31,458 bases of DNA from a virus (taxonomy: Duplodnaviria > Heunggongvirae > Uroviricota > Caudoviricetes): the IMG/VR virus record IMGVR_UViG_2534681704_000006; one strand, given 5' to 3'. The notes below the pieces were generated by a model. It was not told where the DNA came from and searched no databases. It saw only the letters and a list, made by a program, of their open reading frames with translations. Positions 12,519 through 31,458 of this stretch are shown here, in pieces. Made by a program: the position numbers and the translations under genes. Each line of letters opens with the position of its first letter. The first letter of the stretch is position 1.

Positions 12519-12537
12519 AAGAGGGGGTTATTAAGGC

Positions 12538-13500: not shown

Positions 13501-13512
13501 TTAAAGGAAAAG

Positions 13513-13541
13513 TTGCTGTCTGATTGTCATTAGTCTAACAT
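13513..13541 (+). promoter_or_regulatory. candidate late promoter pR' (-35 TTGCTG, -10 TAACAT)
   Basis: Hexamers with 17-bp spacing immediately downstream of Q and upstream of the tR'-like terminator; placement by analogy with lambdoid pR'. Confidence 0.35.
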
Positions 13542-13598
13542 TTTAAATGTTGGAATCGCAACGTAGTTATTATCATATAACAGCTTGTTTCCTGATTT

Positions 13599-13630
13599 AG
13601 CCAGCCTCCCCAAAGGCTGGTCTTTTTCTA
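13599..13630 (+). terminator. tR'-like intrinsic terminator downstream of Q (end of 6S-type leader RNA)
   Basis: Hairpin CCAGCCT-CCCCAA-AGGCTGG followed by TCTTTTTCT. Confidence 0.55.
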
Positions 13631-13655
13631 ATAAGTATTATTTCGGGTAGGGATT

Positions 13656-14180
13656 TTATTGTTTAACCCATAATAATTCATTGACATTGAATCCCAACTT
13701 TTGAGCGGTTCGCACATAGTCTGCTTTTACTTTATCTGGAATAGTTGGGGTCCTTGCCAGAATCCATAGGTATTCTCTGTTCGGACCACTGACAAGAGCA
13801 TACTTATACTCATCATCCAGTTTGATTACATTATAGCCACCATAGAAGGGGCCAAAAAACGAAACCTTCAATGCTGCAGTTTTAGTATCTCCAGTAAAGT
13901 ATGCTTTACCTTCGCTCTCGCTCCATTTATTTTTCGTTGGATCGTATCCACGGTTAAGTACACGAATCCCTCCGTCGTTCCGTTTTCCATAAGTAGCGCT
14001 GACCTGTTCCAGACCACGTTCGAACCGGTTCTCGAGGCGAGCTATTTCATACCATTTTCCGAGGTAGCGGTTGGCGTCAAAATTTGTAATCGGCTGCACA
14101 CCTTTAGGTGGTGTCGGGGCCTTACATGCTATAAGAGTGAAAGAGAGTGCAATGCCAGTCAACACAGGCCATAACTTCAT
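13656..14180 (-). CDS. blc: Blc-like outer-membrane lipocalin lipoprotein
   Basis: 174-aa product with lipobox (LIAC) and strong similarity to recalled bacterial lipocalin Blc (NFDANRYLGKWYEIARLENRFERGLE...KVSFFGPFYGGYNVI...YLWILARTP). Confidence 0.85.
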   Translation of the reverse strand: MKLWPVLTGIALSFTLIACKAPTPPKGVQPITNFDANRYLGKWYEIARLENRFERGLEQVSATYGKRNDGGIRVLNRGYDPTKNKWSESEGKAYFTGDTKTAALKVSFFGPFYGGYNVIKLDDEYKYALVSGPNREYLWILARTPTIPDKVKADYVRTAQKLGFNVNELLWVKQ

Positions 14181-14372
14181 AATAAATCCTGTACTTTTGA
14201 TAGTTGAGAGTAAGTATGAAAGATAGATGATTACGACCGATCACTTAAAGAACTTTCATACTATATTAGGAATAGTCCATAACAGAAAAATTGTCAGTGA
14301 TGACGCCAGAAAGGCAATTTATTCCGTGCACTACACAGTTTATGTGTTAATGAATTAGTCAAGGGGGAGAAT

Positions 14373-15332
14373 ATGATAAAAAAACCTGTGATTGGAATCA
14401 GCGGTTGTTTGGCCGGTTCTGCTGTTCGTTTTGATGGTGGTCACAAAAGAGCTGACTTTTTAATGGACAAATTAGTGGAATGGGTAACATTCAGACCAGT
14501 ATGTCCGGAAATGGCTATAGGGCTGCCAGTTCCGCGTCCTGCTCTACGTCTTGTGCGCTCGATGCAAGGAAATATACGGATGTGTTTCAGCCACGACCAG
14601 AATGAGGATGTGACAGAGAGAATGACAGAGTTTAGTCGTTCTTATATGGACAAATTAAAGGATGTATCGGGGTTTGTGGTTTGTGCTAAATCTCCCAGCT
14701 GTGGCATGGAGCGCGTGCGTGTCTATGATGAAAATGGTAATCGAGGTCGTAAAGATGGAGTGGGACTATTTACGAGCACTTTGATGGAAAAGTTTTCCTG
14801 GCTACCGGTTGAAGAGGATGGGCGATTACATGATCCAGTGCTTCGTGAGAATTTTGTTGAAAGAGTTTTTGCTTTGCATGAGCTCAATCACCTTTACAAG
14901 GAGAAATTATCAAGAAGAGAGTTATTAGCTTTTCATAGTCGTTATAAGCTTCAGTTGTTGGCGCATAGTCAGGCAGGCTATAAAGATATGGGACCATTTG
15001 TGGCTGCAATACACGAGTGGGCGGACCTTGAATCATACTTTGAGGTGTATCGTGATAAGCTGATGGCGATTCTCAGAAAACCTGCATCACGTAAAAATCA
15101 CACGAATGTGCTGATGCATATACAGGGGTATTTTAGTAACTACTTAAGTACACGCCAGCGTAAAGAGTTGAGCGAGGTTATACTTAACTATCGTTCTGGC
15201 ACATTACCTCTTCTTGCGCCGTTGACTCTGCTGAAGCATTATCTGGGTGAGTATCCTAATGATTACTTGCTTACACAGAATTACTTCGATCCCTATCCGG
15301 ACGAACTGGCTCTAAGACTGATGGTAAATTAA
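14373..15332 (+). CDS. DUF523/DUF1722 fusion protein (TudS-like [4Fe-4S] desulfidase-type N-domain)
   Basis: 319-aa ORF; N-terminal GISGCLAGSAVRFDGGHK motif with further conserved Cys residues, typical of DUF523; C-terminal half resembles DUF1722 (YbgA-like); domain assignment from memory. Confidence 0.65.
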   Translation: MIKKPVIGISGCLAGSAVRFDGGHKRADFLMDKLVEWVTFRPVCPEMAIGLPVPRPALRLVRSMQGNIRMCFSHDQNEDVTERMTEFSRSYMDKLKDVSGFVVCAKSPSCGMERVRVYDENGNRGRKDGVGLFTSTLMEKFSWLPVEEDGRLHDPVLRENFVERVFALHELNHLYKEKLSRRELLAFHSRYKLQLLAHSQAGYKDMGPFVAAIHEWADLESYFEVYRDKLMAILRKPASRKNHTNVLMHIQGYFSNYLSTRQRKELSEVILNYRSGTLPLLAPLTLLKHYLGEYPNDYLLTQNYFDPYPDELALRLMVN

Positions 15333-15674
15333 TTGTATGCGATATCATCCAAAAGGATGAGTTCCTGCATGCAGGATATTTACAATCGTAAAAACTACAC
15401 TATGATACCCAGAGTGTCAGTTTGTATAAAAACTCTGTTTACGCTGAAGAAACAATTGAGATGCAACTTAAAGTTGGTAAACATGCCAGTCAAAATATAT
15501 AATATTATGATTCCACGCAGCTATATATAATATAACAGATTGGTTTAATAATTTGTCTTTGTGAGTTAAATACATAATTTTATACTTGTGATGCAATGAA
15601 ATTTTCCTTATTGTTGAACTGGCGAATATTGATTTTCCACCTATACTTACCTGGTGTAACCCCAATGATATCAG

Positions 15675-16415
15675 GTGGATAATATGCCATACATATGTTC
15701 TATCATTTTGGTGTTGAACTCGTTTGATGTCCGAATTGGTAAAGAAGATATTTTGTTTAAAAAAGGAAGTGCTGTTCTCATTGATTACAATTTAAAAGAT
15801 TTTTTTTCATCAAATATAGATCATGTAATGATCGTAGATGTTGAAGAGAAAACAGTTAATGATTTCTTTAAAAGCAACACACTCTCACCTTTTTCTGTAA
15901 GAAGGTTTTATCCGGCATACTTGATGGTGGAATGTGAAGATTTTTCATTGTTAAAGAACTTGATTGCATGCTTGAATTGTGATGGCAGAACTGTGGATTT
16001 TGTTAGAAATCAAATATCACTTGCATGTCTTGCTATCTTATCTTCAGAGAAAATAGTGCAAAGTTTTTTATTTGGATGTCTTAATAGTTTAGGAAGTAAA
16101 GTTAAGGCTATTATTCACACGGATATATCTGCAGCATGGAGACTTTGTGATATATCTTCAAGACTGTATCTGAGTGAAAGTCTGTTAAAAAGAAAATTAA
16201 AGCACGAAGGCTTATCATTTAGTAAGTTAATTCTTGAAGAGCGAATGGTGATGGCGGAAAGGTTATTAAGCTACAATTTATATTCTGTTGGAAAAGTTGC
16301 TGAGATATGCGGTTATGAAAACACGTCATATTTTGTAAGTGTTTTCAGAAGGTATTTTGGTGTTCCTCCCCATCAATATTCATCAAGATTTTTTTTAGAA
16401 AAAGACATGATGTAA
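15675..16415 (+). CDS. AraC/XylS-family transcriptional regulator (AT-rich, AppY/GadX-like architecture)
   Basis: 246-aa ORF with C-terminal dual HTH AraC signature (...LKHEGLSFSKLILEERMVMAERLL...VGKVAEICGYENTSYFVSVFRRYFGVPP); very AT-rich gene and flanks. Confidence 0.8.
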   Translation: MDNMPYICSIILVLNSFDVRIGKEDILFKKGSAVLIDYNLKDFFSSNIDHVMIVDVEEKTVNDFFKSNTLSPFSVRRFYPAYLMVECEDFSLLKNLIACLNCDGRTVDFVRNQISLACLAILSSEKIVQSFLFGCLNSLGSKVKAIIHTDISAAWRLCDISSRLYLSESLLKRKLKHEGLSFSKLILEERMVMAERLLSYNLYSVGKVAEICGYENTSYFVSVFRRYFGVPPHQYSSRFFLEKDMM

Positions 16416-16602
16416 CGTGATGCGTTTTAATGATTTTGTAATTTTCGTATTTGATAATTGTATGATGCTTTCAGCTACGCCAGAATAATCGCGGCGTTTT
16501 TCTTTTTGAATAGATGTTCAAGCCTTACGCTAATGTAACTTCTATACCTTTCCTCTTCGTTCCGAACCGTGTACACCATCCGTTATTTGCGGAGGTGAGG
16601 CT

Positions 16603-16818
16603 ATGAAATCCATGGATAAGTTAACAACGGGTGTCGCCTATGGCACCTCAGCAGGTAGTGCCGGTTACTGGTTTTTACAGCTGCTCGATAAAGTCACGCC
16701 CTCACAGTGGGCAGCAATAGGTGTGCTGGGTAGCCTGGTATTTGGCCTGCTGACGTACCTGACAAACCTTTATTTCAAGATTAAAGAAGATAAGCGCAAG
16801 GCTGCGAGAGGTGAATAA
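16603..16818 (+). CDS. S: class II holin, phage 21 S-type (pinholin) with dual start motif MKSM
   Basis: 71-aa product [31 protein letters not shown]...[13 protein letters not shown] matches recalled S21 holin/antiholin. Confidence 0.9.
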
Positions 16819-17315
16819 TGCCTCCATCATTACGAAAAGCCGTTGCTGCTGCTATTGGTGGCGGAGCAATTGCTATAGCATCAGTGTTAATCACTGGCCC
16901 AAGTGGTAACGATGGTCTGGAAGGTGTCAGCTACATACCATACAAAGATATCGTTGGCGTATGGACTGTATGTCACGGGCATACAGGAAAAGACATCATT
17001 CCCGGTAAAACGTATACCGAAGCAGAATGCAAAGCCCTCCTGAATAAAGACCTTGCCACGGTAGCCAGACAAATTAACCCGTACATCAAAGTCGATATAC
17101 CGGAAACAACGCGCGGCGCTCTTTACTCGTTCGTCTATAACGTGGGCGCAGGCAATTTCAGAACATCTACTCTTCTTCGCAAAATAAACCAGGGCGATAT
17201 CAAGGGCGCATGTGACCAGCTACGTCGCTGGGCATACGCTGGCGGTAAGCAATGGAAAGGCCTGATGACTCGTCGTGAGATTGAGCGTGAGGTCTGTTTG
17301 TGGGGGCAACAATGA
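16818..17315 (+). CDS. R: SAR endolysin (lysozyme, R21/RrrD-like)
   Basis: 165-aa product; Gly/Ala-rich N-terminal signal-arrest-release segment ([18 protein letters not shown]); catalytic E-x8-D-x5-T spacing ([17 protein letters not shown]); start overlaps holin stop. Confidence 0.9.
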
Positions 17316-17776
17316 GCAGGGTAACCGCGATTATCTCCGCTCTGGTTATCTGCATCATCGTCTGCCTGTCATGGGCTGTTAATCATTACCGTGATAACGC
17401 CATTACCTACAAAGCCCAGCGCGACAAAAATGCCAGAGAACTGAAGCTGGCGAACGCGGCAATTACTGACATGCAGATGCGTCAGCGTGATGTTGCTGCG
17501 CTCGATGCAAAATACACGAAGGAGTTAGCTGATGCGAAAGCTGAAAATGATGCTCTGCGTGATGATGTTGCCGCTGGTCGTCGTCGGTTGCACATCAAAG
17601 CAGTCTGTCAGTCAGTGCGTGAAGCCACCACCGCCTCCGGCGTGGATAATGCAGCCTCCCCCCGACTGGCAGACACCGCTGAACGGGATTATTTCACCCT
17701 CCGGGAACGACTGGTAATGATGCAGGCCCAACTTGAAGGTGCTCAGCAATACATAACCGAGCAGTGTTTAAAGTAA
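17312..17776 (+). CDS. Rz: Rz inner-membrane spanin
   Basis: 154-aa product with N-terminal transmembrane segment and coiled-coil; overlaps endolysin stop; contains the embedded Rz1 frame. Confidence 0.85.
17532..17717 (+). CDS. Rz1: Rz1 outer-membrane lipoprotein spanin (embedded in Rz, +1 frame)
   Basis: 61-aa ORF with lipobox (VVGC) and proline-rich body ([15 protein letters not shown]), fully embedded within Rz. Confidence 0.8.
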
Positions 17777-17913
17777 AATCTTAACTACAATATGATTCAT
17801 TTTGATGATTGTTTCATAAGGAACAGTGAAGTAAGATCTAAGAGGAGTTAAATTTTATACAGTATAATCATAATATTGCAGCAAGGTGGTTATAATTGAA
17901 AGAATATTTAGAT

Positions 17914-19371
17914 ATGAATACATCTCATGTAAGAGTTGTTACTCATATGTGTGGGTTCCTGGTTTGGCTCTATAGTCTTTCAATGTTGCCACCAATGGTT
18001 GTAGCATTGTTTTATAAAGAAAAAAGCCTGTTCGTTTTCTTTATAACTTTCGTTATATTTTTTTGCATTGGTGGCGGAGCGTGGTATACAACTAAGAAAT
18101 CTGGCATTCAATTACGTACCCGTGATGGGTTTATTATAATTGTAATGTTTTGGATTTTGTTTTCTGTTATTAGTGCATTCCCTTTATGGATTGACTCAGA
18201 ACTTAATTTAACGTTCATTGATGCTCTGTTTGAAGGGGTTTCTGGAATAACAACAACAGGAGCAACTGTAATTGATGATGTTAGTTCATTACCTCGGGCA
18301 TATTTGTACTATCGGTCACAGTTAAATTTTATAGGTGGTTTAGGAGTTATTGTTCTGGCGGTTGCTGTATTGCCATTATTGGGTATTGGTGGTACAAAGC
18401 TTTATCAGTCAGAAATGCCGGGGCCATTTAAGGATGACAAACTCACTCCCCGCCTGGCCGATACGTCACGGACACTGTGGATAACTTATTCTTTATTAGG
18501 TATTGCTTGTATTGTCTGTTATAGACTTGCAGGAATGCCTTTGTTTGATGCTATTTGTCACGGGATTTCCACAGTTTCGCTTGGTGGTTTCTCAACTCAT
18601 AGCGAGAGTATCGGATATTTTAATAACTATTTGGTTGAGCTGGTGGCTGGTTCTTTTTCCCTGCTATCGGCTTTCAACTTCACTCTTTGGTATATTGTTA
18701 TTAGCAGGAAAACGATAAAACCTTTAATCAGAGATATTGAACTTCGTTTCTTTCTGTTAATAGCCTTAGGGGTGATCATTGTTACCTCTTTCCAGGTCTG
18801 GCATATAGGTATGTATGACTTGCATGGAAGTTTTATTCATTCGTTTTTTCTTGCCAGCTCCATGCTCACTGATAATGGTTTAGCTACGCAGGATTATGCA
18901 AACTGGCCCACGCACACGATAGTGTTTTTGCTGTCGTCAAGTTTCTTTGGGGGATGTATAGGTTCAACTTGTGGTGGAATTAAGTCACTTCGATTTCTTA
19001 TACTTTTCAAACAAAGCAAACACGAGATAAATCAGCTTTCTCATCCCAGAGCGTTGTTGAGTGTAAATGTAGGAGGGAAGATAGTTACAGATCGTGTAAT
19101 GAGGTCTGTATGGAGTTTCTTTTTTCTTTATACTCTCTTCACGGTGTTTTTTATACTGGTGTTAAATGGTATGGGATATGATTTTCTTACATCATTTGCA
19201 ACAGTGGCTGCATGTATTAATAATATGGGATTAGGTTTTGGGGCTACTGCATCGTCATTCGGAGTGCTTAATGACATTGCAAAATATTTAATGTGCATAG
19301 CTATGATTCTTGGTCGCCTTGAAATTTATCCTGTTATTATATTGTTTTCAGGTTTTTTTTGGCGCTCCTAA
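17914..19371 (+). CDS. trkG: TrkG potassium uptake protein (TrkH family)
   Basis: 485-aa multi-pass membrane protein from MNTSHVRVVTHMCGFLVWLYSLSMLPPMVVALFYKEK...; matches recalled Rac-prophage TrkG; AT-rich. Confidence 0.92.
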   Translation: MNTSHVRVVTHMCGFLVWLYSLSMLPPMVVALFYKEKSLFVFFITFVIFFCIGGGAWYTTKKSGIQLRTRDGFIIIVMFWILFSVISAFPLWIDSELNLTFIDALFEGVSGITTTGATVIDDVSSLPRAYLYYRSQLNFIGGLGVIVLAVAVLPLLGIGGTKLYQSEMPGPFKDDKLTPRLADTSRTLWITYSLLGIACIVCYRLAGMPLFDAICHGISTVSLGGFSTHSESIGYFNNYLVELVAGSFSLLSAFNFTLWYIVISRKTIKPLIRDIELRFFLLIALGVIIVTSFQVWHIGMYDLHGSFIHSFFLASSMLTDNGLATQDYANWPTHTIVFLLSSSFFGGCIGSTCGGIKSLRFLILFKQSKHEINQLSHPRALLSVNVGGKIVTDRVMRSVWSFFFLYTLFTVFFILVLNGMGYDFLTSFATVAACINNMGLGFGATASSFGVLNDIAKYLMCIAMILGRLEIYPVIILFSGFFWRS

Positions 19372-19508: not shown

Positions 19509-20297
19509 ATGAGCGAGAAATTAAAGATAGTCTATCGCCCATTACAAGAATTGTCACCGTATGCGCACAACGCCAGGACGCACAGTACTGAGCAGGTGGC
19601 ACAACTGGTAGAAAGTATTAAGCAATTCGGCTGGACTAATCCGGTGCTGATTGACGAAAAGGGCGAAATTATTGCGGGTCACGGTCGTGTTATGGCGGCT
19701 GAAATGCTCAAAATGGATTCTGTTCCGGTCATTGTTCTGTCTGGCCTGACGGATGAGCAGAAAAAGGCGTACCGCCTGGCAGATAATCGCCTACCGATGA
19801 ATGCTGGCTGGGATGAAGATCTGTTGCGGATGGAGCTGTCGGACCTAATCAATGCTGATTTTGATGTCTCCCTGACAGGCTTCGGCCCGACAGAAATTGA
19901 TGAACTGTTGACGGATGTTTTGCCCGGTACAGGAAATAAGGAGGAGCCGTATACGACGAAAATTGATACGCCTGTTTATGAGCCGTCGGGCGGTAAACCG
20001 GATATCAGTGAACTGTACGACGATACGAAAACTCAGGAGCTGATCAGCCGGATACGTTCGGCGTCCCTTGAGCCTGATATTGAGAAATTCCTCCTGTGTG
20101 CGGCAGAACGTCACACGGTGTTTAATTTCAGCAGAATTGCGGACTATTACGCTCATGCCCCCGCTGAAATTCAGTGCCTTTTCGAGGAGTCGGCGCTGGT
20201 GATCATTGATTATCAGCAGGCTATTGAAAATGGATTTGTCCGAATGACGCAGCGCATGGTGGCGATCATGCATAGCGGGGAGGAGGAATATGCGTGA
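19509..20297 (+). CDS. ParB-like nuclease domain protein (YnaK-like)
   Basis: 262-aa ORF; N-terminus (YRPLQELSPYAHNARTHS...IIAGHGRVMAA) has ParB/Srx-type motifs; resembles recalled Rac YnaK but full length here. Confidence 0.75.
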   Translation: MSEKLKIVYRPLQELSPYAHNARTHSTEQVAQLVESIKQFGWTNPVLIDEKGEIIAGHGRVMAAEMLKMDSVPVIVLSGLTDEQKKAYRLADNRLPMNAGWDEDLLRMELSDLINADFDVSLTGFGPTEIDELLTDVLPGTGNKEEPYTTKIDTPVYEPSGGKPDISELYDDTKTQELISRIRSASLEPDIEKFLLCAAERHTVFNFSRIADYYAHAPAEIQCLFEESALVIIDYQQAIENGFVRMTQRMVAIMHSGEEEYA

Positions 20298-21153
20298 TGA
20301 TTTTTGCGCCTTTATTCTGACTCACGGGCGACCGGACAAAGTTCTGACTTACCGGACGTTGCGTCGTGCTGGCTATACCGGGAAAATTTTTATCGTTGTT
20401 GATGATGAAGATAAGACACGGCATCAGTACATGGCTGAATTTGGTGAACAGGTGCTGGTATTTTCCAAAGCAGATATTGCCAGTCGTTTTGACGAAGCCG
20501 ATAATTTTGGTGACCGCCGCTCAATTTTTTACGCCCGTAATGCCTGTTTCGACCTGGCAAAACTGGTCGGGTGTAAATACTTCATTCAGCTCGATGATGA
20601 TTATCACGAGTTCCAGTTTCGGGTGGATCGCAACTATGACCAGGCCTATTTCCCGATAAGGAAACTGGATGCGATCCTTTCTGAAATGCTGGCGTATTAC
20701 GAATCAATACCCGCGCTTTCCATCGCTATGTCGCAGGGCGGGGATTTTCTTGGTGACAATGGCGGCCATGCTTCGTGGGTGAAACGCAAGGCAATGAACA
20801 GCTTTATCTGTTCGGTTGATCGACCGTTCTCATTCATGGGGCGCATTAACGAGGATGTGAATACGTACACGAATCTCGGTCGCCGTGGTGAATTGTTTAT
20901 GACGATCGGTGCTGTCCAGTTAGGGCAGAAACAGACGTAGAAAAACAGCGGCGGAATGACCGAGCTGTATCTGGATTCCGGGACCTACGTTAAAAGTTTT
21001 TATTCCGTCATGTATGCGCCGTCGTGCGTAAAAATCTCACTGATGGGCGCCAGCCATAAACGCATTCACCATCAGGTCACCTGGAACAACGCTGCAGTAA
21101 AAATCCTTCACGAAAAATACAGGAAGAAGACACCCTGCATATTAATGGGGTGA
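20290..21153 (+). pseudogene. YdaY-like gene interrupted by a single in-frame TAG (20938..20940); possible DxD-type transferase
   Basis: ORFs 20290..20940 and 20956..21153 are in the same frame, separated only by TAG plus 5 codons; 8-nt overlap with upstream ParB-like gene; contains DDD motifs (VVDDEDK, QLDDDYHEF). Confidence 0.5.
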
Positions 21154-21156
21154 CAA

Positions 21157-21408
21157 ATGATTCCGTATTCGAAAGTCGAGTCTCTGGCAGCGTGCCGGAT
21201 GACTGCACAACAAATCGCTGACGTACTGGATGTTGATCTGAACCGACTGAAAGAAAATCGGGAAGCAATGACAAATTTTTACGCGTCCATCCGTAAGGGC
21301 AGAGCGAAAGGTGAAGCCGAGCTACGGGCGGCATTGTTTAAGCTTGCCAGAAAAGGGGATGCCTTTGCCCTGCGCGAACTACTCAGGGTGGATAAAAATC
21401 AGGACTAA
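21157..21408 (+). CDS. small hypothetical protein upstream of terminase
   Basis: 83-aa ORF tightly packed between the interrupted gene and terS; no recognised family. Confidence 0.45.
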   Translation: MIPYSKVESLAACRMTAQQIADVLDVDLNRLKENREAMTNFYASIRKGRAKGEAELRAALFKLARKGDAFALRELLRVDKNQD

Positions 21409-21411
21409 CTG

Positions 21412-22506
21412 ATGAGCAGACCGGACTGGGGGGCGTTGCAGCAGGAGTATATTGCTGAATACACCCGCTCCGGTATATCTCCGGTGGCATGGTGTGAAGC
21501 AAGGGGACTGAATTACGCAACAGCCCGTCGTTACATCAAAAAACCTCCGAAAAATGCGCAGACAGAAATGCGCAAAACTGCGCAAAAAAGTGCGCAGAAA
21601 AAATCTGCGCAGACTGCACAAAAGCGGAACGGAAAATCTCAGGAAAAAAAGCCAGTATCCGATGCGTACCTGAATGAGGGCGATGCGGAAGAAATTTCGT
21701 TCTGTCCCGATGAATTCGGCGTTTCTGACCAGCAGGCGAAATTCGCAATGCTGGTTGCCCAGGGGAAAAAACTCGTTGAGGCATATCGCCTGGCAGGATA
21801 CGAGTCAGAGGGGAATGCGGCCTACGTAACCGCCAGCCAGCTCCTAAGAAATCCTAAGGTTTTTCGTGCTATCAGCTACTTCCGCAATCAGTACCAGAAA
21901 CGCTATACCGCAGACCTGGATTTACTGGTGAGTCAGTTGATGGCCATTGTCCAGGCCGACCCCAATCAGTTGGCACAATTTCGCCGTGTTAACTGCCGTT
22001 ATTGCTGGGGCGAGAATCATCACTACCAGTGGCGCGATATAGCAGAATTCGATAAGGCAGCGGCGCAGGCCTCCAGAGATGGCAAACCCGAGCCGGAATA
22101 TGGTGGCCTTGGCTTTGTTGATAACGCCATACCCAATCCGGACTGCCCGAAGTGCTGCGGTGAGGGAACGGGGCAGCTTTATATGGCTGATACCACTCTG
22201 CTTGATGGGGATGCGCGGCAATTATATGCAGGGGCAAAGCTCGGAAAATTTGGTGTTGAGATCCTGCTGGAGGATAAGGCTGCCGCCCGGCGTGAATTGT
22301 TGCGTTTGCTTGCTGCTGGCGGGGCTTTATGTGCAGATAAGCGGCTACAGGAACTGGAAATTGAACGGCGCAGAATGGAAAACCAGAAGCTGCGCAAAGA
22401 GATCGAAACGGTGGAGGATAATGAACATCCCCAACCTGTTGCGATCAATATTAATGTGGTTGATGCCAGAGTAAGGAGTGATGAAGATGATCTCTCCGAC
22501 GCTTAA
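21412..22506 (+). CDS. terS: terminase small subunit (TerS)
   Basis: 364-aa ORF directly upstream of and overlapping the terL-like ORF; N-terminal HTH-like segment and central terminase-small-like region (KFAMLVAQGKKLVEAYRLAGYESEGNAAYVTASQLLRNPKV). Confidence 0.65.
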   Translation: MSRPDWGALQQEYIAEYTRSGISPVAWCEARGLNYATARRYIKKPPKNAQTEMRKTAQKSAQKKSAQTAQKRNGKSQEKKPVSDAYLNEGDAEEISFCPDEFGVSDQQAKFAMLVAQGKKLVEAYRLAGYESEGNAAYVTASQLLRNPKVFRAISYFRNQYQKRYTADLDLLVSQLMAIVQADPNQLAQFRRVNCRYCWGENHHYQWRDIAEFDKAAAQASRDGKPEPEYGGLGFVDNAIPNPDCPKCCGEGTGQLYMADTTLLDGDARQLYAGAKLGKFGVEILLEDKAAARRELLRLLAAGGALCADKRLQELEIERRRMENQKLRKEIETVEDNEHPQPVAININVVDARVRSDEDDLSDA

Positions 22507-23281
22507 TGTGCCTCAGGCGCGATTTCTTTCAATGCCCCACAAATTTAAAGCCTATGTCGCTGGTTTTGGCTCGGGTAAAACATGGATTGGGTGTGGTGGC
22601 ATATGCAAGGGGATTTGGGAACATCCTGGTATAAATCAGGGATATTTTGCGCCAACGTATCCCCAAATTCGCGATATTTTTTACCCTACAGTGGAAGAAG
22701 TTGCTGCTGACTGGGGATTGAATGTAAAAATTAATGAGGGAAATAAAGAGGTTCATTTTTATTACGGACGTCAGTATCGGGGAACCACTATCTGCAGATC
22801 GATGGAGAAGCCGCAAACGATCGTCGGTTTCAAAATTGGTAATGCGCTGGTGGATGAACTGGACATTTTGCCGAAGGAAAAAGCCAGAACAGCGTGGCGC
22901 AAGATAATTGCGCGTATGCGTTATAAGGTTGATGGACTTCGCAACGGTATTGACGTTACAACCACGCCGGAAGGATTCAAATTTGTCTACGAGCAGTTTG
23001 TTAAAGCCGTGCGTGAAAAAACAGAGCTGGCCTCACTGTATGGTCTGGTGCAGGCATCTACTTTCGATAATGAAAAGAACCTGCCAGCAGATTACATTCC
23101 TTCGCTTCTTGAGTCATACCCTCCAGAGCTGATTAAAGCCTATCTTCGAGGACAGTTTACTAACCTGACAAGTGGTACTGTTTACCATCAGTTTGACCGG
23201 AAACTGAATAATTGCGAAGAAGTGGAGCAGCCAACCGCGCTGCTATTAACAGCATGTTTACCAGGCTCTCCGGAGAGCTGA
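22478..23281 (+). pseudogene. terL: terminase large subunit, N-terminal ATPase fragment only
   Basis: Walker A (VAGFGSGKTW) and Walker B (ALVDELD) motifs; ORF ends after 267 aa where the frame changes into a head-morphogenesis-like fragment; nuclease domain absent. Confidence 0.65.
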
Positions 23282-24000
23282 ACGAGCTGGCAGTTTATGA
23301 GGCTGGTTATCAGTTAAGTCTGTTTGATTCTCTGCTACCTGATTTTGTTGCTGATGTTCACCCTCTGGTTGGTATCTCACCTGATGCACTTTATGCCGCG
23401 GCAATGGCGCGACCATTCCAGGGACGACTGCTCAGTGAGTGGGCCTCAGATCTTGAGGCGGATCGGCTCAGACGCATAACAAATACGGTGCGTCAGGGTT
23501 TTTTGTTGGGGGATACCAATGAGCAGATCGCAAGAAAAATTCGGGGACATGTCAGTAAGGGATTTCAGGATGGTGCATTGCAGATGAGCCGGGCTAATGC
23601 GGCCAGCATTGCAAAAACAGCGGTTGGACATCTTGCTGCTACTGCCCGTGAGAGTTTTGCCAGCGCGAATAATGATTTGATTAAGGGTAAGCAATGGTTA
23701 TCAACGCTTGATAATCGTACTACGCCACAATGTCGAATCAGGGATCGCCTCAAATATACGCTGAATAATAAACCTGTAGGTCACAGCGTGCCTTATTTGC
23801 AGGGGCCGGGAAAAATTCATTTCTGCTGCCGCTCAACGGAAACGTTCATTCTGAAATCAGCGAAGGAACTGGGTATTGATGTTCGTGATATTTCCCCGGC
23901 TGAGCGGGCCAGCATGGATGGCGTGGTGGCCGGAGATACAACCTACAGGGAATGGTTTTTGCGTCAGCCTTACACCAGACAAAAACAGATTGTGGGGGAA
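23212..24000 (+). pseudogene. head morphogenesis protein fragment (SPP1 gp7 / Mu F-like)
   Basis: ORF without plausible start or ribosome-binding site in a different frame from terL; residues resemble minor head morphogenesis family (assignment from memory, moderate); runs into J-homologous sequence. Confidence 0.45.
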
Positions 24001-25829
24001 ATCCGGTCAGCGTGGAGGTTCAGTCCGTCACCGACGGCGTGAAGGTGAAAGTGAGCCGTGTTCCTGACGGCGTTGCCGGATACAGCGTGTGGGGGCTGAA
24101 GCTGCCGACGCTGCGCCAGCGCCTGTTCCGCTGTGTGAGTATCCGTGAGAACGACGACGGCACGTATGCCATCACTGCCGTGCAGCATGTGCCGGAAAAA
24201 GAGGCCATCGTGGATAACGGAGCGCACTTTGACGGCGACCAGAGCGGCACGGTGAATGGTGTCACGCCGCCAGCGGTGCAGCACCTGACCGCAGAAGTCA
24301 CCGCAGACAGTGGGGAGTATCAGGTGCTGGCGCGCTGGGACACGCCGAAGGTGGTGAAGGGTGTGAGCTTTATGCTTCGCCTGACCGTGGCCGCCGATGA
24401 CGGCAGTGAGCGGCTGGTCAGCACGGCCCGGACGACGGAAACCACTTACCGCTTCAGGCAGCTGGCGCTGGGGCGTTACACGCTGACGGTCCGGGCGGTA
24501 AATGCCCGGGGACAGCAGGGCGATCCGGCGTCGGTATCGTTCCGGATTGCCGCCCCGGCAGCGCCGTCGCGGATTGAGCTGACGCCGGGCTATTTTCAGA
24601 TAACTGCCACGCCGCATCTTGCGGTTTATGATCCGACGGTACAGTTTGAGTTCTGGTTCTCGGAAACGCGGATTACCGATATCAGGCAGGTTGAAACCAC
24701 AGCCCGCTACCTTGGCACGGGGCTGTACTGGATAGCCGCCAGTATCAATATCAAACCGGGCCATGATTATTACTTTTATATCCGCAGTGTGAACACCGTT
24801 GGCAAATCGGCATTCGTGGAGGCCGTCGGTCGGGCGAGCGATGATGCGGAAGGTTACCTGGATTTTTTCAAAGGCAAGATAACCGAATCCCATCTCGGTA
24901 AAGAGCTGCTGGAAAAAGTTGATCTGACGGAGGATAACGCCAGCAGACTGGATGAGTTTTCGAAAGAGTGGAAGGACGCTAACGATAAATGGAATGCCAT
25001 GTGGGGCGTCAAAATTGAGCAGACCAAAGACGGCAAACATTATGTCGCGGGTATTGGCCTCAGCATGGAGGACACGGAGGAAGGCAAGCTGAGCCAGTTT
25101 CTGGTTGCCGCTAACCGTATCGCGTTTATTGACCCGGCAAACGGGAATGAAACGCCGATGTTTGTGGCGCAGGGCAACCAGATATTCATGAACGACGTGT
25201 TCCTGAAGCGCCTGACAGCCCCCACCATTACCAGCGGTGGCAGTCCTCCGGTATTTTCCCTGACATCAGACGGAAAGCTGACCGCTAAAAATGCGGATAT
25301 CAGTGGTAGTGTGAATGCGAACTCAGGAACGCTCAACAATGTCACGATTAACCAGAACTGTACGATTAAGGGCATGCTGGAGGCGACCCAGGTCAGAGGG
25401 GATTTCGTTAAAGCTGTATCAAAAGCCTTCCCGAAAAAAGTCGGTACGTGGGGTAACACGGAAACACCAAACGGTACGGTTACAGTCACCATCAGCGATG
25501 ATCATAACTTTGACCGCCAGATTATTATTCCGCCCATTATTTTTAACGGTATAGCGTATGACGATCCGGGGAGCGGAAATAACCCAGGAGGCACGCGATA
25601 CACGGGTTATGGTTTTGAAGTTCGCAAAAACGGCGTATTAATCGCATCCAGAGAAACTAAAGGGGCCATTCCCGGTAGTTACAGTGCAGTTATTGATATG
25701 CCTAGTGGTGGTGGTAGCGTCACTCTGGAGTTTAAGATTTTCCAGAAAGGCAATCAGGGGGCAGGCAATATCACCGACTGTACGGTGATTGTGACCAAAA
25801 AAGCCGCTTCCGGCATCAGTATTCGTTGA
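24001..25829 (+). pseudogene. J: tail tip fibre / host specificity protein J, C-terminal half only
   Basis: From about 24001 the translation ([43 protein letters not shown]...) matches the C-terminal part of recalled lambda J; no N-terminal half upstream. Confidence 0.85.
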
Positions 25830-25850
25830 AATTGTTATAACCCATATAAG

Positions 25851-25878
25851 GGCACCAGAAATGGTGCCTTTTTTATTG
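25851..25878 (+). terminator. intrinsic terminator after J
   Basis: Hairpin GGCACCAGAAATGGTGCC followed by TTTTTTATT. Confidence 0.7.
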
Positions 25879-25898
25879 CAGAAAAGCGAGAGGTAATT

Positions 25899-26498
25899 AT
25901 GCGTAAACTTTATGCCGCCATTTTGTCCGCAGCCATTTGTCTGGCCGTATCAGGTGCGCCTGCATGGGCGTCTGAACATCAGTCCACGCTGAGCGCGGGG
26001 TATCTTCATGCCTCGACGAACGTTCCCGGCAGCGATGATCTGAACGGGATTAACGTGAAATACCGTTATGAGTTTACGGACACACTGGGGATGGTGACGT
26101 CATTCAGCTATGCAGGAGACAAGAATCGCCAGCTGACTCATTACAGCGATACCCGCTGGCATGAAGATTCCGTTCGTAACCGCTGGTTCAGCGTAATGGC
26201 GGGGCCGTCTGTGCGCGTGAATGAATGGTTCAGCGCGTATGCGATGGCGGGTGTGGCTTACAGCCGTGTGTCGACTTTCTCCGGGGATTATCTCCGCGTA
26301 ACTGACAACAAGGGGAAAACGCACGATGTGCTGACCGGAAGTGATGACGGTCGCCACAGCAACACGTCTCTGGCGTGGGGAGCTGGCGTGCAGTTTAACC
26401 CGATCGAATCCGTGGCCATTGATATTGCTTATGAAGGCTCCGGCAGTGGCGACTGGCGCACTGACGGTTTCATCGTGGGTGTCGGTTATAAGTTCTGA
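25899..26498 (+). CDS. lom: Lom outer-membrane protein (Ail/PagC/OmpX family)
   Basis: 199-aa product with signal peptide and beta-barrel C-terminal YKF, in lambda position between J and stf. Confidence 0.9.
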   Translation: MRKLYAAILSAAICLAVSGAPAWASEHQSTLSAGYLHASTNVPGSDDLNGINVKYRYEFTDTLGMVTSFSYAGDKNRQLTHYSDTRWHEDSVRNRWFSVMAGPSVRVNEWFSAYAMAGVAYSRVSTFSGDYLRVTDNKGKTHDVLTGSDDGRHSNTSLAWGAGVQFNPIESVAIDIAYEGSGSGDWRTDGFIVGVGYKF

Positions 26499-26523
26499 TT
26501 AGCCAGGTAACACAGTGTTATGA

Positions 26524-26552
26524 CAGCCCGCCGGTTCAGGCGGGCTTTTTTG
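26524..26552 (+). terminator. intrinsic terminator after lom
   Basis: Hairpin AGCCCGCC-GGTTCA-GGCGGGCT followed by TTTTTTGTGG. Confidence 0.7.
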
Positions 26553-26562
26553 TGGGGTGAAT

Positions 26563-29400
26563 ATGGCAGTAAAAATTTCAGGTGTACTGAAAGACGGCAC
26601 AGGAAAACCGGTACAGAACTGCACAATCCAGCTGAAAGCAAAACGTAACAGTACCACGGTGGTGGTGAACACGCTGGCATCTGAAAATCCGGATGAAGCC
26701 GGGCGTTACAGTATGGACGTTGAGTACGGTCAGTACAGCGTTATTCTGTTGGTGGAAGGATTCCCGCCGTCACATGCCGGGACCATCACAGTGTATGAAG
26801 ATTCCCGACCCGGTACGCTGAATGATTTTCTCGGTGCCATGACGGAGGATGATGCCCGTCCGGAGGCACTGCGCCGTTTTGAGCTGATGGTGGAAGAGGT
26901 GGCGCGTAACGCGTCCGTGGTGGCACAGAACACGGCAGCCGCGAAGAAGTCAGCCAGTGATGCCAGCACATCAGCCCGTGAGGCGGCAACCCATGCGACT
27001 GATGCTGCAGGCTCAGCACGCGCAGCCAGCACGTCAGCCGGACAGGCCGCGTCGTCGGCTCAGTCAGCGACTTCCAGCGCAGGAACGGCATTAACAAAGG
27101 CCACTGAAGCATCAAAAAGTGCTGCCGCTGCAGAGTCCTCAAAAAGCGCGGCAGCTACCAGTGCCAGTGCCGCGAAAACGTCAGAAACGAATGCTGCAGC
27201 GTCACAACAATCAGCAGCCACTTCTGCATCCACCGCGACTACGAAAGCGTCAGAAGCTGCCACCTCAGCCCGGGATGCGGCGGCTTCAAAAGAGGCGGCA
27301 AAATCATCAGAAACGAACGCATCCTCGAGCGCCAGTAGCGCAGCTTCCTCGGCAACAGCGGCAGGAAATTCCGCGAAGGCGGCAAAAACGTCCGAGACGA
27401 ACGCTAAGTCTTCTGAAACAGCAGCGGGACAGAGCGCCTCAGCTGCGGCAGGTTCAAAAACAGCGGCTGCGTCGTCTGCCAGTGCTGCGTCAACAAGTGC
27501 CGGGCAGGCCTCAGCCAGTGCCACCGCTGCCGGAAAATCGGCAGAAAGCGCCGCATCATCCGCTTCAACAGCCACAACGAAGGCTGGCGAAGCCACTGAG
27601 CAAGCCACTGCAGCAGCGAGGTCTGCTTCTGCAGCAAAAACCTCTGAAACAAATGCAAAGACTTCAGCAGACAATGCTGCTTCCTCTAAGGCGGCAGCCG
27701 CATCGTCCGCTGGTTCAGCGGCGTCATCGGCATCATCTGCGTCTGCTTCAAAAGATGAGGCGACCAGACAAGCGTCAGCAGCGAAAGGTAGTGCCACGAC
27801 AGCAACAACGAAAGCATCAGAGGCGGCAGGCAGTGCGACGGCTGCATCTCAGAGCAAAGTTGCTGCTGAATCCGCGGCAACGCGTGCCGAAACAGCGGCA
27901 AAACGGGCAGAGGATATTGCTGATGCCGTATCTCTGGAAGATGCGAGTACGACGAAAAAAGGTGTGGTTCAGCTCAGTAGCGCCACTAACAGCCCGTCTG
28001 AAACGCTGGCTGCGACACCAAAAGCGGTTAAGGCGGTAATGGATGAAACGAACAAGAAAGCGCCCTTAAATAGTCCTGCACTGACCGGAACGCCAACAAC
28101 GCCAACTGCGCCAAAAGGTACTAATAATACTCAGATCGCAAGTACGGCTTATGTGATGGCCGCGATTGCCGCCCTTGTAGACTCGTCGCCTGACGCACTG
28201 AATACGCTGAACGAGTTAGCGGCGGCGCTGGGCAACGACCCGAATTTTGCGACCACCATGACTAACGCGCTTGCGGGTAAGCAACCGAAAGATGCCACCC
28301 TGACGGCGCTGGCCGGGCTTGCTACTGCGGCAGACAGGTTTCCGTATTTTACGGGGAATGATGTCGCCAGCCTGGCAACCCTGACAAAAGTCGGGCGGGA
28401 TATTCTTGCGAAATCGACCGTTGCTGCCGTTATCGAATACCTCGGTTTACAGGAAACGGTAAATCAGGCTTCTGGCGCATTACAGAAAAACCAGAACGGC
28501 GCAGATATTCCGGGAAAAGATACCTTCACCAAAAACATTGGTGCCTGCCGCGCATATAGCGCATGGCTGAATATTGGTGGCGATAGTCAGGTCTGGACAA
28601 CTGCGCAATTTATTTCGTGGCTGGAGAGTCAGGGGGCATTTAACCATCCTTACTGGATGTGCAAAGGCTCATGGGCTTATGCAAATAATAAGGTTATTAC
28701 AGATACAGGTTGCGGAAATATTTGTCTTGCAGGTGCTGTGGTGGAAGTTATTGGCACTCGCGGCGCAATGACCATACGCGTTACTACGCCGAGCACGTCC
28801 AGCGGTGGCGGAATTACTAACGCTCAATTCACTTATATTAATCATGGTGATGCTTACGCTCCTGGCTGGCGACGAGACTACAACACGAAAAACCAGCAGC
28901 CTGCATTTGCTTTAGGGCAAACAGGAAGCAGGGTCGCAAATGATAAAGCTGTTGGCTGGAACTGGAATAGCGGTGTTTATGATGCAGATATCAGTGGTGC
29001 ATCGACATTAATCCTCCACTTCAATATGAATGCGGGGAGTTGCCCTGCTGTACAGTTCCGCGTGAATTACAGGAACGGCGGTATTTTTTATCGTTCAGCG
29101 CGTGATGGTTATGGCTTTGAAGCTAACTGGTCAGAGTTTTACACCACAACACGCAAACCCTCTGCGGGGGATGTTGGTGCATATACGCAGGCAGAATGTA
29201 ACTCAAGGTTTATTACAGGTATTCGCCTTGGCGGTCTGTCATCTGTTCAGACATGGAAAGGCCCCGGCTGGTCTGACAGGTCAGGTTATGTCGTTACGGG
29301 TTCAGTTAACGGAAACCGTGATGAATTAATTGATACAACTCAGGCAAGGCCAATTCAGTATTGCATTAATGGGACGTGGTATAACGCGGGGAGTATTTAA
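26563..29400 (+). CDS. stf: side tail fibre protein Stf (lambda-like N-terminus, Ala/Ser-rich repeats, variable C-terminus)
   Basis: 945-aa product from MAVKISGVLKDGTGKPVQNCTIQLKA... matching recalled lambda/Rac Stf N-terminus; gix-like site at 28430..28455 divides constant from variable part. Confidence 0.9.
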   Translation: MAVKISGVLKDGTGKPVQNCTIQLKAKRNSTTVVVNTLASENPDEAGRYSMDVEYGQYSVILLVEGFPPSHAGTITVYEDSRPGTLNDFLGAMTEDDARPEALRRFELMVEEVARNASVVAQNTAAAKKSASDASTSAREAATHATDAAGSARAASTSAGQAASSAQSATSSAGTALTKATEASKSAAAAESSKSAAATSASAAKTSETNAAASQQSAATSASTATTKASEAATSARDAAASKEAAKSSETNASSSASSAASSATAAGNSAKAAKTSETNAKSSETAAGQSASAAAGSKTAAASSASAASTSAGQASASATAAGKSAESAASSASTATTKAGEATEQATAAARSASAAKTSETNAKTSADNAASSKAAAASSAGSAASSASSASASKDEATRQASAAKGSATTATTKASEAAGSATAASQSKVAAESAATRAETAAKRAEDIADAVSLEDASTTKKGVVQLSSATNSPSETLAATPKAVKAVMDETNKKAPLNSPALTGTPTTPTAPKGTNNTQIASTAYVMAAIAALVDSSPDALNTLNELAAALGNDPNFATTMTNALAGKQPKDATLTALAGLATAADRFPYFTGNDVASLATLTKVGRDILAKSTVAAVIEYLGLQETVNQASGALQKNQNGADIPGKDTFTKNIGACRAYSAWLNIGGDSQVWTTAQFISWLESQGAFNHPYWMCKGSWAYANNKVITDTGCGNICLAGAVVEVIGTRGAMTIRVTTPSTSSGGGITNAQFTYINHGDAYAPGWRRDYNTKNQQPAFALGQTGSRVANDKAVGWNWNSGVYDADISGASTLILHFNMNAGSCPAVQFRVNYRNGGIFYRSARDGYGFEANWSEFYTTTRKPSAGDVGAYTQAECNSRFITGIRLGGLSSVQTWKGPGWSDRSGYVVTGSVNGNRDELIDTTQARPIQYCINGTWYNAGSI
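26920..27900 (+). repeat. low-complexity Ala/Ser/Thr-rich repetitive coding region within stf (KTSETNA-type repeats)
   Basis: Repeated peptide motifs (AAKTSETNA, SSASAAS) and GC-rich DNA; source of several overlapping alternative-frame ORFs in the track. Confidence 0.7.
28430..28455. other. gix/pix/cix-like 26-bp site-specific inversion crossover site (TTATCGAATACC TC GGTTTACAGGAA)
   Basis: Right half and centre match the recalled Mu gix site (TTATCCAAAACCTCGGTTTACAGGAA); lies in the conserved EYLGL coding segment of stf. Confidence 0.7.
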
Positions 29401-29402
29401 CG

Positions 29403-29936
29403 ATGATGCACTTAAAAAACATTACTGCTGGCAACCCTAAAACAAAAGAGCAATACCAGCTAACAAAGCAATTTAACATCAAATGGCTTTATTCAGATGA
29501 TGGAAAAAACTGGTATGAGGAACAAAAGAATTTCCAGCCAGACACTTTGAAAATGGTCTATGACCATAACGGCGTTATTATTTGTATTGAAAAGGATGTT
29601 TCAGCAATTAATCCAGAGGGTGCAAGCGTCGTTGAATTACCTGATATTACAGCAAATCGCCGGGCTGATATTTCGGGGAAATGGATGTTCAAAGATGGCG
29701 TAGTGATAAAGCGAACTTATACCGAGGAAGAGCAGAGGCAACAAGCGGAAAATGAAAAGCAAAGCCTGTTGCAACTTGTCAGGGATAAAACCCAGCTATG
29801 GGACTCACAGCTACGGCTGGGCATCATTTCCGACGAGAATAAACAAAAATTAACCGAGTGGATGCTCTATGCGCAGAAAGTCGAATCTACAGACACTTCC
29901 GGCCTGCCAGTAACGTTTCCCGAACAACCAGAATGA
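29403..29936 (+). CDS. tfa: tail fibre assembly protein Tfa
   Basis: 177-aa product [40 protein letters not shown]... typical Tfa/U family, immediately after stf. Confidence 0.85.
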   Translation: MMHLKNITAGNPKTKEQYQLTKQFNIKWLYSDDGKNWYEEQKNFQPDTLKMVYDHNGVIICIEKDVSAINPEGASVVELPDITANRRADISGKWMFKDGVVIKRTYTEEEQRQQAENEKQSLLQLVRDKTQLWDSQLRLGIISDENKQKLTEWMLYAQKVESTDTSGLPVTFPEQPE

Positions 29937-29939
29937 GAG

Positions 29940-29962
29940 AAGGCCCGCTATCGGGCCTTAAT
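29940..29962. terminator. hairpin shared by the convergent tfa genes (bidirectional terminator candidate)
   Basis: AAGGCCCG-CTAT-CGGGCCTT followed by AATTTTTACT. Confidence 0.5.
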
Positions 29963-29964
29963 TT

Positions 29965-30492
29965 TTACTCTGGTTTTTGTGGCCATTCAGGATTTGCCGT
30001 ATCCACACGGCTGACCAGAACACTGTAGCGTTCCCATGCTTCCAGTCGTGTGCGTTCCTCGTCTGTTGCCATATTCAGCCTGACAGCGCGTTCCAGCGGT
30101 TGGATGACTGATTCAGCTTCGAAAAGCAATGCGGCCTTTTGTGATTCGGCCTGTTGTTGTTGCTCGTCTGCCGTATAAATCCGTTTAACCACAGCTCCGT
30201 CCCTAAACATCCACTTACTGGAATCATCAGCGCAGCGGTTGGCTGTAATATCTGGAACCTCAACGACGCTATAACCTTCAGGGTTAAGCGTGGAGGCATC
30301 TTTGGTGATGGCGACAATAATATTATTTGCATCGTAAACAATCTTTATTGTGTCTGGCTGAAAGTTTTTCACTTCCTCATACCAGTTTTTTCCGTCTTCG
30401 GACCATAACCAGATAACATCAAAATTCTTTGTTAGCTGATATTGTTCTTTTGTTTTTGGATTTCCAGACTTAATATTTTTTAAATGCTGCAT
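29965..30492 (-). CDS. alternative tail fibre assembly protein Tfa' (inverted orientation)
   Basis: 175-aa product [40 protein letters not shown]... paralogous to the + strand Tfa. Confidence 0.85.
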
Positions 30493-30495
30493 AAA

Positions 30496-31458
30496 TTACA
30501 CCTGTACGACGTTATACCATGTGCCATTGATGTATTTTTGTATTGGTCTGAATACTGCCGGATCATCGCCATCAACTGCACCGATAATGCCAAGCCCCGT
30601 AATTGCATGACCTGATTTCTCATACATCACGCCTTTTTGCATAGTCTGAACAACACGTGTACCAAGTCGGACATCTCTCACATAACGTGAGTCAAAATTA
30701 CCATAATTGCCGGGAATAACTTGCGCACCGCAAAGCCAGTTGCCATTGTTGTCCATGTACGCCTGACCATCGGTGCCATTGGCTGTCCTTGAGTTATTAA
30801 TCATGTAGATGCCAAATTGCTTATTCCCCAGTCCACCAATCATAAATTTGCGATCAGCGTGGTCCTGACGAAGTAATGCCTGCGCACCATCGGTGGATAC
30901 CGCATTGCGTCCCAAAATAACATTCTGGTCACGCATATGAATCCACATGCCGGTACTACTGTTAATTGCAAAACGGTTTGCAAATATATCCCCTGTAACA
31001 TCAAGACCATGCCCCATGCTTATCCGACCAGTTCTGAGATTAAGCGTAAAGGGGCGTAGTGGCCCTATATCACCATTTTCTCCCTCATTCTCTCGTGTAG
31101 GGATGATATGCAGGCATTCTTCAGAACGACGAAAAATAGCACCAAAAGATGAATTAAATATCCTCAGTGCATTGACTGTCGATATTTTTACTTCACTGCT
31201 GAAAAGGGCTTTAACAAGGACAGACAAAGCATCCCATTTAAGAGTCATCAGGTCTTTTGTTGTGGTGCTCTGGCGGCTTCTCCATTTGAAATATTCATTG
31301 CCGTTGTCGCCTGTTTCAAACCACATGTATGAATCAGTGTCGCTGTCGGCATTATTTTTAAAACCAATCTTTGCCCAGTCAGTATTTCTAATCCAGGCAA
31401 GGATTGAGTCGTTTTCAAAAGTAAGCCCACCGGACAAGGTATCGCCATTCTTTTGCAC
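30496..31458 (-). CDS. alternative tail fibre C-terminal (variable) segment, 5' end beyond window
   Basis: 320-aa partial ORF running off the window; begins (V)QKNGDTLSGG, paralleling the + strand LQKNQNGADIPG after the crossover site; both end with INGTWYN. Confidence 0.8.
   Translation of the reverse strand: MQKNGDTLSGGLTFENDSILAWIRNTDWAKIGFKNNADSDTDSYMWFETGDNGNEYFKWRSRQSTTTKDLMTLKWDALSVLVKALFSSEVKISTVNALRIFNSSFGAIFRRSEECLHIIPTRENEGENGDIGPLRPFTLNLRTGRISMGHGLDVTGDIFANRFAINSSTGMWIHMRDQNVILGRNAVSTDGAQALLRQDHADRKFMIGGLGNKQFGIYMINNSRTANGTDGQAYMDNNGNWLCGAQVIPGNYGNFDSRYVRDVRLGTRVVQTMQKGVMYEKSGHAITGLGIIGAVDGDDPAVFRPIQKYINGTWYNVVQV

Follow-up and report, generated by a model that had tools for sequence, protein, structure and literature searches.

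A Mu G-Type Invertible Tail-Fibre Cassette with a Truncated Invertase Gene in a Decayed Lambdoid Prophage of Escherichia coli

Invertible DNA segments that exchange the C-terminal part of a phage tail fibre are a known type of genetic switch, represented by the G segment of phage Mu, the C segment of P1, and the P segment of e14, and lambdoid carriers are known as well (e14 and phage LLS). Tail-fibre inversions have become a routine finding in surveys (PMC9881135). Here, we describe a cassette of this type in a stretch of 31,458 nucleotides of Caudoviricetes DNA (IMG/VR virus record IMGVR_UViG_2534681704_000006), which is referred to below as the window. The window covers the int-proximal part through the side tail fibre gene, stf, of a decayed lambdoid prophage of Escherichia coli, and the cassette, approximately 3.05 kb in size, begins inside stf and extends just past the right edge of the window. 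The most fitting description is of an orphaned G-type cassette carried by a lambda-type Stf; it lacks one defining feature of a self-contained system, an intact adjacent invertase. What is less ordinary about it is a recent inversion without an invertase in cis and the wide distribution of the invertase gene stub, which is predicted to bear an enhancer.

Relation to described switches

In the Mu and P1 records, the regions that match the cassette are annotated as invertible segments with S and S' variable parts and U and U' chaperones. The window at 28426-31458 has 92-94% DNA identity to the G segments found in Mu, D108, and SfMu, and over most of the cassette it is 89-93% identical to the C segments of P1 and P7. 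The Mu system consists of the G segment with Gin, the gix sites, the sis enhancer, and the host protein Fis. The locus shares with the Mu G segment its size, a crossover site with the same central dinucleotide and with agreement at 24 of 26 positions, a convergent arrangement of Sv-U and U'-S'v with the constant part outside, and an invertase gene leaving from the right site. The likeness extends to the encoded proteins and the invertase gene, with 97% amino acid identity to S' and a first stretch of 122 nt in the invertase gene that is identical to gin. In contrast to Mu, the constant part is not Mu S but a lambda-type Stf (PF08400) encoded downstream of J and lom, the invertase gene is a stub of 64 codons, the silent S-type part is a mosaic with 69% identity, and the carrier is a defective lambdoid prophage. 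The lambda-type Stf as a carrier adds a further case to the known trade of tail-fibre modules among Mu, P1, P2, and lambda-like phages.

The likeness to P1 includes the outer half-site on the stf side, GGTATTCGATAA, which agrees with the outer half of P1 cixR, GGTATTGGATAA, at 11 of 12 positions. However, P1 differs in the central dinucleotide of its sites (TT/AA and not TC/GA), in the length of its C segment (4.2 kb), and in the direction of cin, which points towards the segment; the cin enhancer lies approximately 480 bp from cixL. The e14 P segment is likewise an invertible stf/tfa cassette in a lambdoid cryptic prophage (PMC4272514), but e14 differs in having pinE intact, in a segment size of 1.8 kb, and in its sites (TTGGTTTGGGAGAAGG-type repeats). 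PinQ of the Qin prophage in strain K-12 inverts the e14 segment in trans, and the chimeric StfE2 blocks the adsorption of T2 (PMC12529663). Of this anti-phage type, only the preconditions are seen at the present locus: a cryptic prophage, an invertible stf, and probably an invertase acting in trans.

Phage LLS is lambdoid and has two opposed tail-fibre genes and an invertase (PMC12315714). The IMG/VR locus L012 is similar to the window in having a homologous, lambdoid constant end of stf, the same two 26-mers, and a 93%-identical cassette, but it differs in its intact, Gin-like invertase of 196 aa. In LLS and L012 the switch is self-contained, whereas here the invertase is a remnant and the prophage is unable to make particles. 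Together with L015, L016, L028, and L035, L012 belongs to a set of related loci that have the same two 26-mers and an intact invertase of 195-199 aa. The possibility that all of these relatives are P2-like phages was ruled out, since L012 at least carries the lambdoid constant end. The flagellar Hin/hix switch is more distant, in that a promoter is inverted and coding sequence is not exchanged, and hin is intact. In work by Kutsukake et al. in 2006, the Fels-2 invertase Fin of Salmonella LT2 reportedly acts on this Hin/hix switch elsewhere in the chromosome, which sets a precedent for such action by a prophage-encoded invertase of the Din family.

Crossover sites and anatomy of the cassette

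The left crossover site is a gix-like 26-mer, TTATCGAATACCTCGGTTTACAGGAA, that sits within the stf codons for VIEYLGLQE at the boundary between the constant and variable parts of the gene. Mu gix, TTATCCAAAACCTCGGTTTACAGGAA, with which it was compared above, and its inverted partner, TTCCTGTAAACCGAGGTTTTGGATAA, were taken from the reference Mu genome, and the central dinucleotide is TC/GA in both Mu gix and the window site. With up to three mismatches permitted, TTATCGAATACCTCGGTTTACAGGAA occurs a single time in the window, and none of 100 dinucleotide-preserving shuffles gave a match, a chance expectation of zero. Read from the sequence, the two 12-nt half-sites of the left site agree at 7 of 12 positions, the same number as in Mu gix. 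The 12-nt core, AAACCNNGGTTT, taken alone with one mismatch is not significant in such a search, with approximately one match expected by chance, and it is the full-length match to gix that carries the case for the site. The site forms the core of the left arm of a 38-nt inverted repeat (28426-28463) that is 92% complementary to the right arm. DNA resembling that of Mu, P1, P7, and D108 starts at window position 28426-28430, at this same constant/variable boundary.

The window ends before the second site, and all sequence past 31458 is drawn from identical or near-identical relatives. Contigs of the source lineage were found by an exact-protein look-up with the window Stf, and five of them have 0 mismatches to the window: L046 and L047 (10.9 kb), L049 (9.8 kb), and L051 and L052 (6.3-6.6 kb). 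In these five contigs, the inverted second site, TTCCTGTAAACCGAGGTTTTAGATAA, starts 25 nt past 31458, spans 25-50 nt past the edge, and carries the same central dinucleotide as the left site. To the right of TTCCTGTAAACCGAGGTTTTAGATAA there follow, in order, a 64-aa Resolvase fragment, a 39-aa Caudo_TAP fragment, GGDEF, PBP (ybhB), and bioA. The same arrangement is present in the complete genomes C2 and MB30, which are 99.9% identical over the cassette; in C2 the inverted repeat has two 38-nt arms that are 92% complementary and are separated by 3011 nt. No exact match to a 57-mer taken from the end of the window was found among the species-representative genomes of GTDB. Two unrelated IMG/VR contigs, L010 and L032, stop at the same base as the window, 31458, while L018 stops inside the left site and L050 stops 13 nt beyond 31458. 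The contig ends gather at the inverted repeats, as is usual for the short-read assembly of repeated or mixed-orientation DNA, and this may explain where the window ends.

Inside the segment, two alternative Stf C-termini, each with its own chaperone gene, are placed convergently, and the constant N-terminal part lies outside it (Table 1). The expressed variable part is identical to Mu S'v at 304 of 314 residues, and the tfa gene that follows matches PF02413 (Caudo_TAP, E=2e-36) in a position equal to that of Mu U'. The silent part is identical to Mu Sv at 223 of 324 residues and is matched by PF21446, a fibre trimerisation domain. In the constant part, PF08400 (phage_tail_N) is found with E=1e-71, and the limits of the stf coding sequence agree with those in the annotated genome C2. 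The features of a lambda-type side tail fibre module are all present (PF08400, PF02413 twice, PF06316 Lom, and the C-terminal domains of J), and stf stands after J and lom. The putative terminator between tfa and tfa' is a hairpin with an 8-bp stem containing six GC pairs, followed by a T-rich tail. In a consensus scan of the cassette region, promoter-like sites showed no excess over shuffled controls, which fits the Mu model of expression entering from the constant part.

The original prediction for this locus was made from the letters of the window; its observation is borne out, and its interpretation is supported in part. The 26-bp dyad site of the Gin/Pin/Cin kind that it placed at the stf constant/variable boundary is the gix match described above. 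The open reading frames (ORFs) and Pfam domains agree with the layout it proposed, an stf C-terminus and tfa on the plus strand and then tfa' and an alternative stf C-terminus on the minus strand. The second inverted site expected within about 50 bp beyond the edge is found in the identical contigs, and the site homology, the anatomy, and the occurrence of both orientations confirm a tail-fibre cassette of the Gin/gix type. It had also stated that both variable parts begin with QKN after the crossover and end with INGTWYN. QKN does occur shortly after the site in both, but INGTWYN lies near the C-terminus and does not end it, as four residues (AGSI or VVQV) come after it.

Inversion of the cassette and its truncated invertase gene

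The cassette occurs in both orientations, which are designated state A (the orientation of the window) and state B (flipped). When the inversion junction is computed, stf stays in frame and encodes a 959-aa Stf. Among the matches listed, at least 13 records from at least 12 complete E. coli genomes contain the flipped junction with 100% identity over 750 nt. Flanks were compared for four of the flipped genomes (PEC1003, ETEC6, DXMF6-3R, and ES6), and in each of them the cassette lies at the same locus and has the same stub. The flipped stf is an intact ORF of 961 aa in PEC1003 and a called gene of 959 aa in flipped contigs. Lineages other than that of the window also include an identical segment haplotype in both states, and at least two haplotypes occur in state B.

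The most direct evidence for inversion comes from the lineage of the window itself. Three flipped contigs of this lineage, L053, L054, and L055, were found by look-up of a 247-aa ORF that is a separate gene only when the cassette is flipped. Their left flank has 0 mismatches to the window over 7.9 kb, with both lineage-specific deletion joints of the prophage included, and their 3003-nt segment is identical to that of the window but inverted. The right flank, stub included, matches L046 without a mismatch for 3.9 kb (L053 and L054) or 2.2 kb (L055). BLAST reports differences in the flipped contigs only where the outer half-sites differ, at three positions. Because the joints, the stub, and the segment are identical in the flipped contigs, the inversion postdates the decay of the prophage and the truncation of the invertase. 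The cassette was inverted very recently, and the event left no other change. A pair of genomes from the same farm with opposite orientations, ES1 and ES6, was considered as key evidence and dropped, since the two are similar and not clonal, with 7-11 differences per flank.

No Gin homologue is encoded within the window itself. The invertase gene that the original prediction expected within about 1 kb of the right edge is, in this lineage, not intact but only a stub of the Resolvase domain fused to the 3' end of a tfa gene. Its reading frame begins 105 nt past 31458 and is 64 codons long, with TGA in place of Arg codon 65 and a fusion, at approximately codon 78 of the frame, to the last 30 or so codons of tfa. 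Sixty of the 64 residues are identical to Gin, including the region of the catalytic serine. The stub matches positions 2-73 of 145 of PF00239 (Resolvase), and the E-helix and the DNA-binding domain are absent. A stub with the same stop and fusion point, approximately 95-96% identical, stands beside a different invertible cassette in a lambdoid prophage of NCTC86 at the ompW/trp locus. The spread of hits suggests that hundreds of E. coli genomes carry this pin'-'tfa stub. The junction between the tfa fragment and dgcX occurs alone in genomes without the prophage.

The stub preserves the 5' part of the invertase gene for approximately 230 nt, and the first 122 nt are 100% identical to Mu gin. 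The P1 record annotates the Cin enhancer at nt 19-90 of cin, three Fis sites are located inside the gin coding region in Mu (PMC3378877), and the enhancer of the Hin system lies approximately 100 bp from hixL (PMC3798978). The enhancer position for the gin stub was taken from the P1 annotation combined with the statement that the Fis sites lie inside gin, as the literature consulted gives the gin coordinates only indirectly. By this reasoning, the retained stub would span the region that holds the Fis-bound enhancer in Mu and P1, and it may have kept enhancer function. A scan with a loose Fis consensus gave two hits whose positions are shared by Mu gin and the stub, but this consensus is too degenerate for the result to count as evidence.

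The locus is an invertible cassette of the Mu G-segment type in a lambdoid prophage stf, its own invertase is dead, and we consider it probable that inversion now takes place in trans. In the proposed mechanism, transcription and translation would come in from the constant part of stf, such that the variable C-terminus and the tfa gene facing the constant part are expressed; in the window, the Mu S'/U' type would be on and the S/U type silent. Inversion would proceed by serine-recombinase strand exchange at the central dinucleotide of the two inverted 26-bp gix-like sites. The agent would be an invertase of the Gin/Pin family encoded elsewhere in the genome, probably in another prophage, and acting in trans. 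Cross-reaction within the Gin/Pin invertase family is established. In DXMF6-3R, a flipped strain that carries the stub, a P2-like prophage at another place in the genome encodes an intact invertase of 197 aa, and the 3' part of a Gin/Pin-type invertase gene is present in 3166 of 5426 complete E. coli genomes (58%). The inversion in trans of a cryptic-prophage stf segment by PinQ, mentioned above, has been demonstrated experimentally (PMC12529663).

Several points weigh against inversion in trans as the explanation. For the lineage of the window, the trans-acting invertase is a predicted one, both states are seen in comparisons between assemblies, and the second site and the stub are read from relatives of the window. 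Enhancer function of the stub is suggested by homology only. Finally, both arms have 25 identical bases around the crossover, and for this reason site-specific exchange and a rare RecA-dependent exchange are inseparable by sequence.

The main rival is such an exchange, in which RecA-dependent recombination between the 38-nt inverted repeats, with their 25-nt identical core, would flip the segment occasionally and independently of any invertase. The dead invertase in cis speaks for it, as does an exchange point that is not resolvable below the 25-nt identical stretch. A stretch of 25 bases is close to the lower limit for RecA-mediated exchange in E. coli, so flips driven by RecA should be very rare, whereas flips are observed repeatedly, in several lineages, on backgrounds that are identical or nearly so. 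In full-length cassette comparisons, no inversion was found that is confined between the arms of the longer, 161-nt inverted repeat of tfa and tfa', which is only 75% identical, and the Gin/Pin-type invertase genes detected in more than half of the complete E. coli genomes also speak against RecA. We regard RecA-dependent inversion as unlikely. It is less likely still that the cassette is a frozen relic, in which inversion ended with the decay of the invertase and an old polymorphism persisted while the stub flank later spread to both forms by homologous recombination. In favour of a relic, lambdoid prophages show a high degree of mosaicism, the stub is widespread, and its presence beside a different cassette at ompW/trp in NCTC86 indicates that it moves between prophages. 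However, flank replacement needs extra events that should leave some differences, and there are 0 substitutions over approximately 15 kb between the contigs in states A and B, a comparison that includes the two joints, the segment, and the stub. State B is, moreover, found on at least two segment haplotypes, one of which is shared with state A.

Misassembly of a repeat-bounded region could in principle produce flipped copies as well, and several short-read contigs do break at or near the repeats (L010, L032, L018, and L050). We give this very little credence, because the 38-nt repeat is shorter than any read, such that the junctions are read directly, both states are present in many closed genomes and in independent assemblies of several sources, and the stf ORF is intact and in frame in both states.

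Inversion in trans, which remains the preferred explanation, has consequences for how such loci are annotated. A cassette that has only a stub still flips on otherwise identical DNA, which argues that enzymes from other prophages can drive such switches, and labelling such cassettes as fixed for want of a nearby intact recombinase would be wrong. The locus also offers a natural second test case for the recently reported idea of host protection against other phages through tail-fibre inversion in a cryptic prophage. A further proposal, which we find doubtful, is that the right site and the putatively enhancer-bearing stub are kept as a functional cis element and that the Stf of the defective prophage is phase-varied by the invertases of co-resident prophages. 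If this were true, the Stf forms would serve the host or other phages, for example, by receptor masking as with PinQ and StfE2 of e14, or the cassette could be a reservoir from which lambdoid phages recombining with the prophage draw alternative fibre tips. The stub beside different cassettes would then reflect selection and not shared decay. With the prophage defective, any present-day function can at most be suggested.

Carrier prophage and further features

The carrier is a decayed lambdoid prophage located at attB lambda in E. coli, between ybhC and ybhB/bioA. The window contains lambda-like exo/bet, a cI-type repressor, Q, lysozyme, and cargo genes including trkG. Compared to a full-length relative in strain 81EVA, the window has three changes: an IS1 insertion at 4903-5670, a joint at 23233, and a joint at approximately 23996-24006. 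The IS1 insertion adds 768 bp relative to 81EVA and L032 and contains a transposase ORF at 4918-5421 on the minus strand (PF03400, E=2e-78). The two deletions take out the C-terminal half of the large terminase, the portal, the capsid, the tail genes (tail tube and tape measure among them), and the N-terminal half of J. The region 22478-25829 now consists of the terminase N-terminal domain, then a fragment of a Mu-F-like head protein, and then the C-terminal 605-625 aa of J, fused. An assembly error as the source of the deletions was ruled out, because at least eight independent assemblies carry the same joints; no closed, complete E. coli genome has the two joints of the window. In the absence of portal, capsid, and tail genes, host-range switching by the element alone is not possible, and the host-range role that had been predicted for the segment is barred at present, the N-terminal half of J being gone as well.

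Between the end of the prophage and ybhB/bioA lies dgcX, a MASE4-GGDEF diguanylate cyclase gene (L046 11401-12732; L001 9664-10995). This gene has been described at attB lambda beside lambdoid prophage DNA, as a hitch-hiker on lambdoid prophages (PMC4287979).

Table 1. Features of the cassette, its flanks, and the prophage cargo; positions are those of the window unless a contig is named.
Feature	Position	Strand	Basis or remark
stf (whole ORF)	26563-29400	+	Window ORF list
stf constant part	26563-28442	+	Lambda-type N-terminal domain, Ala/Ser-rich repeat shaft, conserved region up to crossover point
Left crossover site, gix-like 26-mer TTATCGAATACCTCGGTTTACAGGAA	28430-28455	+	Central TC at 28442-28443
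Expressed variable Stf C-terminus, Mu S' (G(-)) type	28456-29400	+	Protein comparison with Mu S'v
tfa, tail fibre assembly chaperone, Mu U' type, serves expressed variant	29403-29936	+	PF02413
Terminator-like hairpin between convergent tfa and tfa'	29940-29959	+	Consensus scan only
tfa', chaperone, Mu U type, serves silent variant	29965-30492	-	PF02413, E=2e-36
Silent alternative Stf C-terminus, Mu S/G(+) type, mosaic	30496-31458	-	No own 5' end; open at window edge
Invertase stub and tfa fragment	L001 9264-9590 (105-431 nt past window end); also L006 5076-5402		
Lipocalin	13656-14180	-	Cargo gene
DUF523/DUF1722 protein	14373-15332		Cargo gene
trkG, potassium transporter	17896-19371		Cargo gene; as in Rac prophage

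The Stf shaft is a long repeat rich in Ala, Ser, and Thr at approximately 26900-27900, and it gives rise to long spurious ORFs, for example, at 27060-27797 on the minus strand and at 27119-28039 on the plus strand. A strong terminator-like hairpin with an 8-bp stem, seven GC pairs, and a T-run lies between lom and stf at 26525-26546. The expression of stf probably needs antiterminated late transcription or an undetected promoter.

Cargo genes of host type are located in the late region of the prophage at 13656-19371. Other remnants of the same prophage, with different internal deletions, are found in L013, L021, and L032. One such remnant joins window position 2758 to 17098 and 19929 to 29943, and what is left of the cassette there is tfa', the silent S-type end, the right site, and the stub.

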